Assembly (NCBI GenBank): GCA_964542845.1
Contig: CAZIVM010000040.1
Location: 1-17,068, forward strand
DNA from: an uncultured Victivallales bacterium
Lineage (GTDB): Bacteria > Verrucomicrobiota > Lentisphaeria > Victivallales > CAZIVM01
Length of the DNA: 17,068 nucleotides
Direction: 5' to 3'
Below are positions 2,359 to 17,053 of the stretch, in pieces. Position numbers and translations under genes: made by a program. Within the stretch, counting starts at the first letter, position 1, and the number at the start of each line of letters is the position of its first letter. Under the pieces are notes generated by a model that did no database searches, was not told the origin of the DNA, and saw only the letters and a list, made by a program, of their open reading frames with translations.

Positions 2359-2554
2359 TCTTAACTCTCCTTTATGTAGGTTTTAGATATGACCAAATTT
2401 TTTACTAATATATCCCTATTCAACACAAAATTCAAGCAAAAACACCACATTAAATTAATTAAATTCACGCACCGCCCTAACACAATCCTTACAAACCAGA
2501 ATTATATTAATGTTATCAAATTCACATCTCATCAATATACATTGGAGAAAATTA
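2359..2554. promoter_or_regulatory. Divergent promoter region between the lipoprotein cluster (-) and pstC (+); contains three AAATTCA(A/C)(G/A) direct repeats and a weak Pho-box-like 18-mer
   Basis: Repeats aaattcaagc (2428-2437), aaattcacgc (2461-2470; 33 bp = 3 helical turns later), aaattcacat (2518-2527); atgttatcaaattcacat (2509-2526) matches E. coli Pho box consensus CTGTCATAAAACTGTCAT at about 12/18 positions. AT-rich, no ORF. Confidence 0.3.
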
Positions 2555-4126
2555 ATGCAAAAATCACGAAATTCACGTCACTCAACGGATCGCTATTTTA
2601 AATGGATTGCGACTGCTGGAGCCCTTACGCTCGTTGCCATCATGGCGGGTTTATTTATTCAGCTGGTCTTAAACGCCCTTCCCGCATTTGAAATTTTTGG
2701 ATTCGAGTTTTTCACATCGACCGAATGGAATCCCGCGCAAGAACAATTCGGTGCGCTCCCTGCCATTCGTGGAACACTATTAACCACGTTTATTGCGATT
2801 CTTATCGGCGTCCCCTCTTCGTTCTTCATTGCTTTTTTGTTAACCGAACTGCTCCCCAGTTGCATTGCAAAACCGATTGGACACGCGGTTGATTTACTTG
2901 CCGCTATCCCATCCATTATTTTCGGTATGTGGGCATTTATGGTATTAATTCCGCTCATGCAACAGTACGTGCAACCTGCATTGCAAACCTCAATCCCAAT
3001 TCATTTAGGCGAAAAACCTTGTTATCATCAAACCGAAAAGGGAGTTCATTTATCAGGCAACAAAGGTTACATGCAAACGCCTCATATTTATTATCTCGAT
3101 TTTGAACAAACCATGACTCTTGCCTTACGTTTTACCCCACAAATTACATCGTCTGCACAGTCAATATATTATAAAGGAGAAGCGGGAATTCAACTCTCGA
3201 TTACACCTTCAGGTCATCTCAATTTTAATGGGGCGATTAGTGAAACAAAAATTGAACATAATGTAACACAAACTTTGATTGCGTCCATCGAAAACAACAC
3301 GCCTCGTCTGTGGATTAACACGCAAGAGACCCTACTTAACACCGCGTTATTTCAAATGCCACAAAATACAACATCGCCTCTCTGGATTGGAAAAAATAAA
3401 GATGGAAATTATCTTAAAGGCAATCTAGAATGGTTGCGATTCTACAATTCAAGTCTTACCCCCAATGAAATTGACGACACATTATTTCAAACCACAGAAG
3501 CGGCAGAAGATGCTATCGATGAACACCGTCTAGAAGTTGCGTGGGAGTTTAGTGGCGAAAACCAAGATAACTGCATCGATCTCGCCTCCTCTCTCCCGCT
3601 CTCTTTTAACACAAAAAAAATCGAACTCAATTTTCTAAAAGAGTCTCTTTTTGCAGGTGATCTCACAGGAAGTGGTACCCTTTCTGCAGGACTGATTCTT
3701 GCCTTCATGATTCTCCCTTTCATCACCTCCGTGATGCGCGATATTTTTATCATGACTCCGCCCGTGATTAAGGAATCCGCCTACGGAATGGGGGCAACCC
3801 CATGGGAAACCACCCTTCATATTACACTCCCGTATGGGATGCAAGGTTTTTTAGGTGCAATATTTTTAGGATTAGGTCGGGCACTCGGCGAGACGATGGC
3901 TGTTCTTTTTATCATTGGGAATGCGCCCTACGCTGGGAGTTCATTATTTGCCCCAGCCACAACCATTGCGTCCACTTTAGCCAATAGCTTTGGTGAAGCA
4001 GATGGTATTTTCAAAAATGTATTATTTGCGTTAGGTCTCATTCTCTTATTCCTCTCGTTTGGGATACAAATCATTGCACAACGTTGGTTAAATAATGTAA
4101 AGAAACAAAATGGAGGTGGTTTATGA
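2555..4126 (+). CDS. pstC: Phosphate ABC transporter permease PstC with a ~220-aa insertion (LamG/ConA-like) in the second periplasmic loop; 523 aa
   Basis: ORF 2510..4126 trimmed to Met at 2555 (GGAGA RBS 8 nt upstream). N-terminal 146 aa and C-terminal 157 aa align with E. coli PstC (TM1-3 ... LAAIPSIIFGMW ... and TM4-6 with EAA loop SVMRDIF..ESAYGMGATPWE..GRALGETMAV). Residues ~147-366 have no PstC counterpart and contain LWIGKNKDGNYLKGNLEWLRFYNSSLTPNEIDD, typical of Laminin_G_3/ConA-like lectin fold. Confidence 0.9.
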   Translation: MQKSRNSRHSTDRYFKWIATAGALTLVAIMAGLFIQLVLNALPAFEIFGFEFFTSTEWNPAQEQFGALPAIRGTLLTTFIAILIGVPSSFFIAFLLTELLPSCIAKPIGHAVDLLAAIPSIIFGMWAFMVLIPLMQQYVQPALQTSIPIHLGEKPCYHQTEKGVHLSGNKGYMQTPHIYYLDFEQTMTLALRFTPQITSSAQSIYYKGEAGIQLSITPSGHLNFNGAISETKIEHNVTQTLIASIENNTPRLWINTQETLLNTALFQMPQNTTSPLWIGKNKDGNYLKGNLEWLRFYNSSLTPNEIDDTLFQTTEAAEDAIDEHRLEVAWEFSGENQDNCIDLASSLPLSFNTKKIELNFLKESLFAGDLTGSGTLSAGLILAFMILPFITSVMRDIFIMTPPVIKESAYGMGATPWETTLHITLPYGMQGFLGAIFLGLGRALGETMAVLFIIGNAPYAGSSLFAPATTIASTLANSFGEADGIFKNVLFALGLILLFLSFGIQIIAQRWLNNVKKQNGGGL

Positions 4127-4989
4127 TTCAAGCACCCATGCGATCTATTTTTCGACGTCAATTCAAAAACTATATCATGATTCTTATCAGTGGAATTGCT
4201 ACGTTGATTGCCGTCGGGATCTTATTCTGGATTATCGCCACCATTATCTATAAAGGATTCCCTGCCATTCATTGGAATTTTTTAACCCAAGTTACCGCAC
4301 CGAGCACGGACCCTGAAGGCGGCATCGCCAACGCCATTTTAGGGACCCTTATGATTATTTGTGTCGGATCATTTATTGCGCTTCCTTGCGGTTTACTCGG
4401 CGGGATATGGCTTTCTGAATTCGGTCGAAGCAGTCATATAGGACACTGGGTCCGTTTTACAGCGAACGTTATGATGGGGATCCCCTCCATTGTGATAGGA
4501 CTTTTTGTTTATGCCATTTTAGTCGTGCCCATGGGATGCGCATCGGGGTTTGCGGGTTCGGTAGCGATTGCGATTTTGATGATTCCCATCGTGATGCGAG
4601 TTACCGAAGATATGTTATCATTAGTCCCTAACACCTTACGCGAATCAGCCTTAGCGTTAGGAATGACGCGATGTCGAACCACATTTGTGATTTTATTTCG
4701 TTCGGCAAAGAGCGGGTTAATCACAGGAATACTCCTTTCAATTGCCCGTGTAGCAGGTGAAACAGCGCCGTTACTTTTTACCGCACAATGTTCTCAATAT
4801 TGGCCTTCAATAAGTTCATTTTTCAGAAGTCCAACAGCGAATATCACGGTCACAATCAACGAATACTTTGGCAATGACCCTAGTCCAATCATGACTGAGC
4901 GTGCATGGGGCGCTGCCCTTGTCATCCTCATCATTATTCTCACCACCAATCTTTCTCTACGTTTTTGCTTCAAAAATAAAACTAACTAA
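4123..4989 (+). CDS. pstA: Phosphate ABC transporter permease PstA
   Basis: 288-aa ORF, start ATGA overlapping pstC stop, GGAGG RBS; 6-TM permease with EAA-type loop ([13 protein letters not shown]..). Confidence 0.9.
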
Positions 4990-4999
4990 GGATTCTATT

Positions 5000-5821
5000 A
5001 TGTCAGAACTTCCGCCACTGAAAAGTCTTACACTCGAACAAATGCCACCGCCACCCACCCTCTCAACTCAACCTAAAATTATCGCTAAAGATCTCAATTT
5101 TTACTACGGTGATCATCAAGCATTAATGAATAATAATCTCACCATCTATGATAAAACCGTAACAGCGGTAATTGGACCTTCAGGTTGTGGGAAGTCGACC
5201 CACCTGAGAACCTACAATCGTATTTTTGAGCTCTACAAGGATTTTCGTGCGGATGGCGAAATTCTTATTGATCACGACAATATTCTCTCGCCTGAGATTA
5301 ATCTTTTGGAATTACGACGTAATGTGGGAATGATTTTTCAAAAACCAACCCCTTTTCCTATGTCGGTATTTGACAATGTCGCTTACGGACTCAATCTTCA
5401 CTACAAAATGGGGAAAAGTGAACTCCAAGATCGTGTCGAACACGCCTTGCGCGGTGCCGCTTTATGGGACGAAGTCAAAGACAAACTGAAAAAACCCGGA
5501 ATGGCTCTCTCAGGCGGTCAACAACAACGCCTTTGTATCGCGCGCGCTATCGCTGTGGAACCCGAAATTCTCCTCATGGATGAACCCACATCGGCAATTG
5601 ACCCTGTCGGCACAGGAAAAATTGAGGACTTAATTTCCGAACTTGCAGAAAAGTTCACCATCGTCATTGTCACGCATAACATGCAACAAGCCGCCCGCAT
5701 CTCCGATTACACTGCATTCTTCTATCAAGGATACATTGTAGAGTACGATAAAACCGACATCATCTTTACCCATCCCAAAAATCTTCGCACAGAATCGTAT
5801 ATTCGCGGTCATTTTGGTTGA
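5000..5821 (+). CDS. pstB: Phosphate ABC transporter ATP-binding protein PstB
   Basis: ORF 4901..5821 trimmed to MSELPP (AAGGA RBS at 4988-4992). Walker [10 protein letters not shown], signature LSGGQQQRL, Walker [13 protein letters not shown]; strong identity to E. coli PstB throughout; extra Pro-rich ~15-aa N-terminal extension ([14 protein letters not shown]). Confidence 0.92.
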
Positions 5822-5877
5822 TTTTCTCAAAAAATGTAGTATGTTAATGATAACCCCCTTAATTGAAGGAATAATTT

Positions 5878-6537
5878 ATGAGCGCACATCTCATTAAAGA
5901 AATCGAAAAATTACAAAAACAACTTGCCGAACTTGCAACATGCGTTGAAGAAAGTTTACGTCAAGCCCTGCATTCGCTAACCACAGGAGATGAAAATCTC
6001 GCGAACATTGTCATCGAAAATGATGATTACATTGATCGTAAAGAGATTGCATTGGAAGAGGAATGTCTAAAAATATTGGCACTCTATCAACCTGTGGCTT
6101 CCGATTTACGCTATGTTATTACTTGTCTTAAACTCAATACAGAACTCGAACGTATCGGCGATCTTGCCGTTAATATCGCCAAACGCGCAAGTGCCATGCA
6201 TAGTTTAAATCAAGAAAATATCAATATCGATTTTTCAACCATGGGGCGACGGACACAAGAATTATTACAGGAAACCCTTGATGCATTGTTCAAAATTAAC
6301 AAAGAAACAGCCGAAAAAGTCATCGCCAAAGACGACGAAATCGATGAAATGCATCATCAAAATACCCTCAAAATTGCTAATCTCGCACAACAATACCCTA
6401 AACAGACTTTTCCGCTTACCTATATTTTAGGCGTCAGTCGCAGTCTTGAACGCATCGCGGATTCATGCACGAACATCGCCGAAGACGTCATTTATATGCT
6501 CAATGGCGCCATTGTCAGACACCAAAACAAGGAGTAA
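5878..6537 (+). CDS. phoU: Phosphate signalling negative regulator PhoU
   Basis: 219-aa ORF with two PhoU repeats (ELERIGDLAVNIAKRA / SLERIADSCTNIAEDV), AAGGA RBS. Confidence 0.9.
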   Translation: MSAHLIKEIEKLQKQLAELATCVEESLRQALHSLTTGDENLANIVIENDDYIDRKEIALEEECLKILALYQPVASDLRYVITCLKLNTELERIGDLAVNIAKRASAMHSLNQENINIDFSTMGRRTQELLQETLDALFKINKETAEKVIAKDDEIDEMHHQNTLKIANLAQQYPKQTFPLTYILGVSRSLERIADSCTNIAEDVIYMLNGAIVRHQNKE

Positions 6538-6543
6538 CACTTT

Positions 6544-7224
6544 ATGAAAGCCCACATTCTCTGCATCGATGATGAACAAGATATTTTAACGGGTCTACGA
6601 TTTACCCTTGAAAAAGAGGGTTATCATGTCGCCACCGCAACTTCAGGTGAAGAAGGTCTTGTCAAAATGCGCGAAAACATGCCCGATTTAATTGTGTTGG
6701 ATCTCATGTTGCCGGGCAAAGATGGTCTTACTATTTGCAAAGAAATTCGTGCCGACTCCAAATTATCTCATATTCCTATTATTATGCTTACCGCAAAGTC
6801 AACCGAAATTGATGTGGTCTTAGGGCTTGAGATGGGAGCAGATGACTATCTCCCTAAACCCTTCTCTAATCGTGTCTTAGTGGCACGCATCAAATCACTT
6901 TTACGCCGTCAATCCACCACTGAATCACAAGAAAACACCATCACACGAGGACCTCTTGTCATTAACCCTGGTCGACGCGAAGTGTTTTATAAAGGCGAAT
7001 CTATCGAATTAACTTACACAGAGTTTGAACTCCTTGCCATGCTTGCAAAGCGCCCAGGGTGGGTTTTCTCGCGCGCCCAAATTGTGAACAACATTAAAGG
7101 GGGCGATTATCCCGTTACCGAGCGATCTGTCGATGTTCAAGTTGTCGGACTCCGCAAGCGTTTAGGTGAAGCAGGCGATTGTATCGAAACCGTTCGCGGT
7201 GTTGGCTACAAATTCAAAGGCTAA
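6544..7224 (+). CDS. phoB: Phosphate regulon response regulator PhoB (OmpR family)
   Basis: 226 aa; receiver domain (DDEQDIL...LIVLDLMLPGKDG..MLTAK) plus winged-helix (LTYTEFELLAMLAKRPG...RGVGYKF); AAGGAG RBS inside phoU end. No phoR downstream. Confidence 0.9.
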   Translation: MKAHILCIDDEQDILTGLRFTLEKEGYHVATATSGEEGLVKMRENMPDLIVLDLMLPGKDGLTICKEIRADSKLSHIPIIMLTAKSTEIDVVLGLEMGADDYLPKPFSNRVLVARIKSLLRRQSTTESQENTITRGPLVINPGRREVFYKGESIELTYTEFELLAMLAKRPGWVFSRAQIVNNIKGGDYPVTERSVDVQVVGLRKRLGEAGDCIETVRGVGYKFKG

Positions 7225-7225
7225 C

Positions 7226-7273
7226 GCACACACTTCGTGTGTTGAGCTGTGCGCTGTCGCGCACTCACTAAGT
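7226..7273 (+). repeat. Copy A of a ~45-bp double-hairpin repeat (cacac-ttc-gtgtg ... gtgcgc-tgtc-gcgcac ... tcactaagt), immediately 3' of phoB
   Basis: Read directly; near-identical inverted copy at 7525-7570 and diverged direct copy at 7322-7369. Confidence 0.7.
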
Positions 7274-7274
7274 A

Positions 7275-7306
7275 AATTAGACTTCTTCTAATTATTTATA
7301 TCTTTT
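7275..7306 (+). terminator. Weak AT-rich hairpin (aattaga-cttct-tctaatt) followed by atttatatctttt; possible phoB terminator
   Basis: 7-bp stem with only one G:C pair followed by a T-rich tract; weak on its own, may act with the GC-rich hairpins of repeat copy A. Confidence 0.25.
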
Positions 7307-7321
7307 CGCTATTTCATATCT

Positions 7322-7369
7322 CGCACTTCGTGTGTTGAACTGCATGTTATCGCATGCTCGCTGGGTAAA
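7322..7369 (+). repeat. Copy B of the repeat (diverged): first hairpin conserved, second hairpin replaced by gcatg-ttatcg-catgc (compensatory, structure kept)
   Basis: cacttcgtgtgttgaactg identical to copies A/C; second stem has different sequence but retains palindromic stem-loop; tail tcgctgggtaa vs tcactaagtaa. Confidence 0.6.
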
Positions 7370-7524
7370 CCGTGGTTGCTACTTTGTATAGGCGTATACT
7401 TAAAATTTGTATCATAAAATTGACATAATATGATTATTATGTTTAGTTTTTACTTCTTTATGTGGGTGAACGGAAAAAAATATTTAAGTGATTTAAGTAT
7501 AATAATCACAAAAAGCACAATATG

Positions 7525-7570
7525 CTTAGTGAGTGCGTGACAGCGCACAGTTCAACACACGAAGTGTGCA
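7525..7570 (-). repeat. Copy C of the repeat, inverted orientation, immediately 3' of the tRNA-Tyr terminator
   Basis: Reverse complement tgcacacttcgtgtgttgaactgtgcgctgtcacgcactcactaag matches copy A at ~42/44 positions. Confidence 0.7.
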
Positions 7571-7605
7571 TAAAAAAACTCAGAAATGCAAAAGCAAATC
7601 TGAGT
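7571..7605 (-). terminator. Rho-independent terminator of tRNA-Tyr
   Basis: On the minus strand: actcaga-[13 nt loop]-tctgagt followed by TTTTTTTAT, starting ~12 nt after the tRNA CCA end. Confidence 0.6.
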
Positions 7606-7905: not shown

Positions 7906-8487
7906 ATGTTAGATCAACTTAATCAATTTTTTGCTGGCGATACCATGGAAGTCGCTTATAAATCCATGGCAATCATCGGAACAGCATTATTCCTCTTATC
8001 CACGTTAATGACTTTTATTGGGAGCTCAACTGATGTCGATGTAGATATCGATAATGATGGCGCCATTGATATTCATCACGATACAGGTTTTGCAGATCTT
8101 AAAATTTTCTCTGCAAAAACCATTATCGCCTTTGTTATGTTTGTGGGATGGGGGGGTATCGTCTTCGGAAACACTGTCTACGGCTTTATTGGCGCTTTTG
8201 CACTCGGAATCTTCATGATGTTCGTGACCGCCTACTTAATTGTCCTAATCTTAAAACTTCAAGAATCTGGCAATATCAACGATGAAGCTTTCGTGGGACT
8301 TACAGGGATTGTTTACATGACCATTCCTGGCGATCGCGCTCATGAAGGAAAAGTACAAGTCACAACAAAATCAGGCATTCGCGAAGTTGCAGCGCTTGCA
8401 GATAAAAAAATAGAAACAGGGACACCTGTCAAAATCAAGTCCAAACACGCCGAGGGCTGTTTTATCGTCGACACCATCGATTCATAA
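7906..8487 (+). CDS. yqiJ: NfeD-like inner-membrane protein (YqiJ family), partner of the downstream flotillin
   Basis: 193 aa; AAGGAGGA RBS; Asp/His-rich N-terminal segment (DVDVDIDNDGAIDIHHDTGF) as in E. coli YqiJ, hydrophobic TM core, C-terminal beta-rich OB-like tail; located directly upstream of an SPFH/flotillin gene as in yqiJK. Confidence 0.78.
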   Translation: MLDQLNQFFAGDTMEVAYKSMAIIGTALFLLSTLMTFIGSSTDVDVDIDNDGAIDIHHDTGFADLKIFSAKTIIAFVMFVGWGGIVFGNTVYGFIGAFALGIFMMFVTAYLIVLILKLQESGNINDEAFVGLTGIVYMTIPGDRAHEGKVQVTTKSGIREVAALADKKIETGTPVKIKSKHAEGCFIVDTIDS

Positions 8488-10135: not shown

Positions 10136-10158
10136 ATAACTACTTAACATTTTCATCA

Positions 10159-10190
10159 AGCGCCAAGCCACAAACTTGGCGCTTTTTTTA
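10159..10190 (+). terminator. Rho-independent terminator after the flotillin gene
   Basis: aagcgccaag-[ccacaaa]-cttggcgctt followed by TTTTTTTA. Confidence 0.7.
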
Positions 10191-17018: not shown

Positions 17019-17022
17019 ATGA

Positions 17023-17053
17023 TAGCTCCAAATGATTTGGGGCTATTTTTTTA
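17023..17053 (+). terminator. Rho-independent terminator ending the rnf-thiG-GNAT transcription unit
   Basis: tagctccaaa-[tga]-tttggggcta (one G:U wobble) followed by TTTTTTTAT, 5 nt after stop codon. Confidence 0.7.

Follow-up and report, generated by a model that had tools for sequence, protein, structure and literature searches.

The phoB–tRNA-Tyr region

The window, that is, the whole stretch of DNA that was analysed, is a complete contig of 17,068 bp of the MAG of an uncultured PVC (Lentisphaerota-like) bacterium. The lineage is poorly sampled: the closest PhoB is 69% identical and the closest RnfC is 76% identical, and the named neighbours in the protein searches are Victivallales, Lentisphaeria and Kiritimatiellales MAGs. 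The region of interest lies between the end of a pst operon, on the + strand, and a convergent tRNA-Tyr gene; rightward of the latter there are an orphan ORF and an SPFH gene, followed by rnfABCDGE, thiG and a GNAT gene. The features discussed below are the following.

2510-7224, + strand: pstC, pstA, pstB, phoU and phoB, in operon order
6544-7224, + strand: phoB (OmpR-family response regulator), end of the pstCAB-phoU-phoB operon, with the native stop TAA at 7222-7224
7225-7570, no strand assigned: whole repeat-bearing non-coding segment (proposed insertion), ~346 bp, bounded by TAA 7222-7224 and TAA 7571-7573
7226-7300, + strand: copy A, beginning 2 nt past the phoB stop; 94.2 bits
7319-7393, + strand: copy B, the diverged copy; 87.9 bits; 74% identity to A over 46 nt
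7394-7496, no strand assigned: AT-rich core with short AT palindromes; ~20% GC
7497-7570, - strand: copy C, inverted, placed by the three-way alignment and the fold; 91.1 bits
7572-7616, no strand assigned: bidirectional intrinsic terminator, consisting of A7 (7572-7578), a stem (7578-7584 / 7599-7605) and then TGTATTTATTAA
7617-7701, - strand: tRNA-Tyr (GTA), from ARAGORN; Rfam tRNA score 52.5 bits

The product of 6544-7224 matches Pfam Response_reg and Trans_reg_C, the C-terminal domain being complete, and its best NCBIfam match is PhoB, with a score under the PhoB cut-off. The protein ends in ...GYKFKG, directly before the stop codon; the position of this end is identical in the relative L010 (...GYRFKG), and the C-terminus is intact. 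The phoB and tRNA-Tyr genes are convergent, and the repeats are found at the 3' ends of both transcription units, with each copy co-oriented with its upstream gene, in agreement with the sequence-only reading from which this analysis started. The segment 7225-7570 has only short ORFs, and none of these has a ribosome-binding site. When the window is compared with Rfam, the tRNA alone reaches its gathering score; the other matches have E-values of at least 0.07 and are far under the thresholds.

Three copies of one repeat unit

The 19-mer core of the repeat, CACTTCGTGTGTTGARCTG, occurs three times in the window (7231-7249 on the + strand, 7324-7342 on the + strand and 7548-7566 on the - strand), compared with 0.00 expected occurrences in 200 shuffles of the window. 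With a covariance model trained on A, B and C, the scores listed above are obtained and the rest of the window reaches at most 7 bits; the scan of the 17-kb contig with this model finds no further copy. The three copies proposed in the sequence-only reading are thus recovered at their places by the core matches as well as by the covariance scores (88-94 bits).

Each homologous unit has a length of 46-70 nt and contains two or three distinct hairpins. In the three-way alignment the stretch CAC TTC GTGTG TTGA.CTG is nearly invariant, the palindrome that comes second is variable and the tail is partly conserved. A conserved tail had been proposed for each unit, and this is found in part (TCACTAAGTAA), whereas copy B reads TCGCTGGGTAA. 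Past ~70 nt the similarity of the copy tails is no greater than that of shuffles.

The inverted arms formed by copies A and C are longer than the 45 bp described earlier and their spacer is shorter than ~250 bp: the arms measure 68 nt (7229-7296 / 7501-7568), are 85% complementary and lie 204 nt apart. An identity of ~95% between A and C, as previously given, is seen for the first ~45 nt only, and over the complete 68-nt arms the value is 85%. The two arms differ at several positions, which rules out an assembly fold-back artefact. The description of the intervening DNA as an AT-rich spacer applies to 7394-7496 but not to copy B, which had been included in that spacer and has 49% GC. There is no fourth, degenerate copy in the AT-rich core, as none of the copies aligns locally to 7394-7496 better than shuffles do, and no similarity is found between the repeat and the tRNA-Tyr gene of the kind expected for an att site or for tyrT-like repeats.

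Conserved hairpins and compensatory changes

In copy A, hairpin H1 pairs 7229-7233 with 7237-7241 (CACAC-TTC-GTGTG, 5 bp, loop TTC) and hairpin H2 pairs 7249-7254 with 7259-7264 (GTGCGC-TGTC-GCGCAC, 6 bp, 4-nt loop). A possible H3 pairs 7268-7271 with 7277-7280, and in addition there is an AT-rich hairpin of low stability (7275-7293, about -5 kcal/mol), with a T-rich run after it. In copy B, H1 is formed by 7322-7326 and 7330-7334; it reads CGCAC-TTC-GTGTG, with one A-U pair changed into G.U, and is not the exact match to copy A that had been assumed. H2 of copy B is formed by 7342-7347 and 7352-7357, and the possible H3 by 7362-7364 and 7370-7372. That both arms of H2 have changed in copy B with the stem being preserved is confirmed, but the register differs from the one first described, the better one being GCATGT-TATC-GCATGC, in which one pair is U.G. 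In copy C, H1 is at 7556-7568 and H2 at 7533-7548; the closing pair of this H2 is C.A on the - strand (the A-like sense, in which the pair is lost) and U.G on the + strand.

When H2 of copies A and C is compared with H2 of copy B, three double-sided changes (U-A to C-G, G-C to A-U and C-G to U-A) and one change from C-G to U.G are found. RNAalifold adds a third helix of 3 bp, which lies in the tail (CTAA..TTAG in copy A and CTGG..CCG in copy B) and accounts for two further double changes; an alternative third helix, proposed by us, pairs too, so that the placement of this helix is tentative. In our own three-helix structure 96% of the cells are paired, as compared with 14-58% when the partners are slid by 1-3 columns. 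In simulations, copy A received 17 random substitutions at the observed transition bias; 123 of 1e6 runs retained every one of the 14 pairs (H1, H2 and the RNAalifold helix) and had at least five double changes. For the pre-specified H2 alone the p value is 0.004 at the observed bias and 0.0006 at a transition:transversion ratio of 2:1.

The differences between A and B are transitions at 16 of 17 positions, in both directions, which is the pattern that would be shown by stems evolving through G.U or G.T intermediates. The transition bias also holds at the unpaired positions (3/4), and it exceeds a 2:1 ratio with p about 0.01 (binomial estimate).

The predicted folding energies of the single copies do not differ significantly from those of dinucleotide shuffles (z from -0.7 to -1.7), so that the support for a structure is provided by covariation and not by stability. 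Both H1 and H2 are present in the predicted folds of each copy. Four positions distinguish the strands: three of these are G.U on the strand that is co-oriented with the upstream gene, and the fourth, in H2 of copy C, favours the opposite strand (-7.9 kcal/mol on the + strand versus -5.8 kcal/mol on the - strand). By total minimum free energy, each of the three copies folds better on the co-oriented strand, and the difference is clearest for B (sense -15.4 versus antisense -8.1 kcal/mol). When the whole segment is folded as one RNA, a long A:C stem is predicted (-137 kcal/mol, z -10).

The alignment thus shows two conserved, predicted stem-loops in each of the three homologous units, and the diverged unit has compensatory changes. 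That selection acts on RNA or DNA structure, as suggested previously, is likely, but the covariation comes from a single diverged copy, B. The covariation is significant but thin, and hairpin-templated repair at the DNA level could mimic selection.

Terminators and boundaries of the segment

The hairpin at 7578-7605, just past copy C, lies between A7, to the left, and TGTATTTATT, to the right, and folds on both strands, with -16.7 kcal/mol (z -5.8) on the - strand and -13.8 kcal/mol (z -4.4) on the + strand; a simple terminator scan missed it because its stem has few G-C pairs. On the - strand, where it has a U7 tail, it is predicted to be the terminator of tRNA-Tyr, and a plausible ancestral terminator of phoB on the + strand. 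At the ends of other operons in the window there are canonical terminators consisting of a hairpin and a T-run (for example 10158-10184 and 17021-17047), the stems being 10-16 bp long. No canonical terminator is found between the phoB stop and copy A, or anywhere in 7225-7570, and there is no U-tract downstream of H1 or H2.

A TAA borders the segment at either end (7222-7224 and 7571-7573). This 3-bp match occurs in an AT-rich context and its boundary was chosen after inspection, so that it is weak evidence of a target duplication. Deleting 7225-7570 together with one TAA brings the native phoB stop directly next to the terminator (GGCTAAAAAAAACTCAGA...). A similar layout is seen in L010, the sole relative with pst-phoU-phoB synteny, in which the phoB stop is directly followed by an A-run, a hairpin and a U-run, without a repeat, but which is too distant to be counted as an empty site.

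Searches for related sequences

Searches with the 19-mer core in 185,579 species genomes, in the JGI metagenomes and in IMG/VR, which are collections that may not hold the rest of this MAG, give chance matches only; the matching genome and metagenome contigs have no similarity beyond the exact 19-mer pattern. The viral, plasmid and phage searches also give only chance or low-complexity matches. An exact look-up of the PhoB of the window, for orthologous spacers, has no match. The closest PhoB (68-69%) and RnfC (72-76%) relatives have other neighbours and are without the repeat, both by BLAST and by covariance-model search, and REP-like families are not seen at the loci of these relatives. The comparison of orthologous phoB–tRNA-Tyr spacers that had been envisaged is not provided by these genomes, since the nearest relatives differ in their neighbours; the repeat is absent from them, as it is from the syntenic but distant L010. 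In the window itself there is no transposase gene and no recombinase or invertase gene, and no RAYT or TIRYT gene is nearby.

A possible insertion of the mobile-repeat class

The segment 7225-7570 may have arisen by insertion of a small non-coding element of the mobile-repeat class, either MITE-like or a REP/TIR-like cluster, and is a candidate for a new family of structured repeats; we give this interpretation an even chance. As one option, the segment would be a single MITE-like element whose terminal inverted repeats are structured and, at ~68 nt, unusually long, with the third copy lying inside it. Alternatively, it could be a cluster (trimer) of three units of a REP/TIR-like multi-hairpin repeat. 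In either case the insertion would have occurred at the phoB stop codon, between this stop and a bidirectional terminator once shared with the convergent tRNA-Tyr, and the empty-site allele would read GGCTAA joined to AAAAAACTCAGA. REP/ERIC-like elements, a miniature inverted-repeat element and protein-binding sites had all been considered in the sequence-only reading. The mobile-element options fit the anatomy best, because of the TAA/TAA flanks and the position between the native stop and the bidirectional terminator, and the protein-site option fits less well.

The use of canonical terminators elsewhere in the window and the lack of one before copy A, the terminator past copy C, the layout in L010 and the intact PhoB together suggest an insertion. 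What counts against the mobile reading is that within the contig the copies are found at this locus only, that the window has no transposase and that the copies have no GTAG/CGTC tag.

If inserted in this way, the segment would be co-transcribed with phoB as its 3'-UTR and would fold into hairpins. Acting single-stranded, either these hairpins or the long A:C duplex might stop 3'-5' exonucleases or cause transcription to pause or terminate. H1 begins 4 nt past the phoB stop and H2 is GC-rich, so that hairpins would lie within the footprint of a ribosome at the stop codon and could dampen the termination of phoB translation; from the 4-nt distance alone, we infer that a ribosome-stalling effect is plausible here. 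The stems may have been kept because they are needed by a hairpin-recognising transposase or for an RNA function.

Comparison with MITEs, REPs and intrinsic terminators

Both MITEs and REPs adjoin coding regions, mostly downstream of these, and are transcribed (PMC3733652). Like MITEs such as Correia/NEMIS, ERIC, RUP and Nezha, the segment is non-coding, is a few hundred bp long, has terminal inverted repeats and is predicted to fold into a long hairpin. It likewise lies beside the 3' end of a gene, where co-transcription is expected, and the short flanking TAA is a possible target duplication. MITEs are quoted as being 70-300 bp long without coding capacity, and with 346 bp the non-coding segment is slightly above this range. 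The differences are that the terminal inverted repeats of MITEs are quoted as 15-30 bp (PMC3733652), whereas the A/C arms have ~68 nt and are themselves made of two or three local hairpins, that the segment has an extra internal direct copy, B, and that nothing in the searched collections resembles it in sequence.

REPs occur as head-head, tail-tail and head-tail dimers and as trimers, with spacers of 20-100 bp, and the stems of the partners may differ; double-palindromic TIR repeats, which are linked to HUH tyrosine transposases (TIRYT), are also described (PMC3733652). As in REP clusters (BIMEs and TIR repeats), the copies studied here are extragenic and palindromic, are found past a coding region and are arranged in direct and inverted orientation. 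The unit of ~50-70 nt with two or three hairpins is, however, larger than the REP unit, quoted as 20-40 nt (about 14-40 nt for a single palindrome). In the REP super-families, one end is marked by a tetranucleotide, GTAG or CGTC (PMC3733652). As read from the alignment, copies A and C are without GTAG, CTAC, CGTC and GACG, and the CTAC of copy B (7379-7382) is not adjacent to H1 or H2. REPs are also expected in many copies per genome that share a consensus; three clustered copies are seen in this 17-kb contig.

With respect to function, REP hairpins are reported to stabilise the upstream mRNA and, when near a stop codon, to stall ribosomes, and a role in translational control is discussed for the E. 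coli REPs that lie no more than 15 nt from a stop codon (PMC12306157). Intrinsic (Rho-independent) terminators and stabiliser hairpins of 3'-UTRs share with H2 a GC-rich stem-loop on the transcribed strand, placed directly past the gene that ends an operon. H1 and H2 differ from intrinsic terminators in having no U-tract, whereas the terminators of this contig have 10-16-bp stems and T-runs, and a canonical one is found at 7578-7605.

Alternative interpretations

Rather than an insertion, the segment could be a non-mobile structure specific to this locus, made by local direct and inverted duplication, in which A and B would be signals for processing, termination or stability of the 3' end of the phoB operon and C a backstop of the tRNA-Tyr terminator. 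This is in agreement with the lack of other copies in the contig and in the searched collections, with the orientation of each unit with its upstream gene, with the covariation in the conserved hairpins and with phoB having no canonical terminator of its own. We nevertheless consider it rather unlikely: given the canonical bidirectional terminator just past copy C, extra 3'-end signals are not obviously needed; little transcript should arrive at copy C, which is behind the tRNA terminator; H1 and H2 have no U-tract; and an insertion would better match the sharp outer boundaries with their flanking TAA. The palindromic nature of H1 and H2 in duplex DNA could also point to operator sites for a dimeric protein, or the segment could include a small-RNA gene running from the AT-rich core through copy C antisense into the bidirectional terminator, for which there are a promoter-like site at 7400-7429 (with TTGACA at 7420-7425), the better fold of H2 of copy C on the + strand and the precedent of REP-containing sRNAs reported in E. 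coli (PMC12306157). Both are improbable in our judgement, as a protein site would conserve bases, yet copy B has changed six stem bases with the pairing kept, the promoter-like matches are at chance level (5 found versus 3.5 expected), Rfam gives no match and the spacer has no gene to regulate.

The 68-nt inverted repeats around a short AT-rich segment with a promoter-like match are also reminiscent of an inverton, in which these repeats would be the recombination sites for flipping the 204-bp core. Typical inverton repeats are much shorter than these arms, which are just 85% identical, and the internal direct copy B would be without a role. Both flanking genes point inward, so that a flipped promoter could drive antisense RNA only; the window has no invertase gene, and with the promoter matches at chance level the inverton/promoter proposal was rejected as very improbable. 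We give still less credence to a small protein-coding repeat. Copy C starts with ATG (the complement of 7571-7569) and reads MHTSCVELCAVTHSLSILCFL up to a stop codon, and copy A has the same frame with a stop at the same aligned position (TAA in A, TGA in C); five of the ten A/C differences are at third codon positions, which is not significant. Against this, the ATG abuts the T-run of the terminator, copy A has no start codon, the A-B differences are spread evenly over the codon positions (6/5/6) and the changes in the hairpins are non-conservative (C to H and H to C). The coding mini-ORF was rejected, there being neither a Shine-Dalgarno sequence nor a codon-position pattern. A Pho box, the consensus of which has CTGT motifs at a spacing of 11, was also rejected, the CTGT motifs here being 7 nt apart (by eye), not 11.

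A more far-reaching version of the repeat-family interpretation would be that the copies represent the first member of an untagged family of multi-hairpin repeats restricted to an uncultured PVC/Lentisphaerota-like lineage, with stems selected on the transcribed strand, and that they form a modular 3'-UTR device that couples the termination of PhoB translation to the stability of the mRNA 3' end, not merely selfish DNA. Selection on the transcribed strand is proposed in this version because almost all changes are transitions that pass through G.U intermediates. Taken as a whole, this version is a long shot.

Implications

If the insertion interpretation is true, the segment would be a natural example of an element that has put ~350 bp between the stop codon of an operon and its terminator, which might alter the dosage of PhoB, the regulator of the phosphate regulon. 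If the family is dispersed, it would be a new family of small structured repeats in a barely sampled PVC lineage, a useful strain marker and an instance in which repeat subtypes show stem covariation. A repeat confined to this locus would be a minor local curiosity, and in either case the repeat segment opens no long-standing question.

Other genes in the window

Several features of the neighbouring genes were noted in the course of this analysis. To the right of the tRNA-Tyr gene, a 193-aa ORF (7906-8487, + strand) with hydrophobic stretches has no Pfam or NCBIfam match, and a search of 5.8 billion proteins returns only the ORF itself; it lies directly 5' of the SPFH/Band-7 gene, which is an NfeD-like position. 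On the other side, a 338-aa ORF without a Pfam/NCBIfam match (1342-2358, - strand) is divergent from pstC, at the place where the phosphate-binding PstS might be expected. The listed pstB ORF (4901-5821, + strand) has a GTG start 89 nt inside pstA; its ABC_tran domain begins at residue 76, and the true start of pstB is therefore probably further downstream. The PstC permease (2510-4126, + strand) is unusually long, with 538 aa, and has a Laminin_G_3 / ConA-like lectin domain (residues 183-321) inserted N-terminal to the BPD_transp_1 core.
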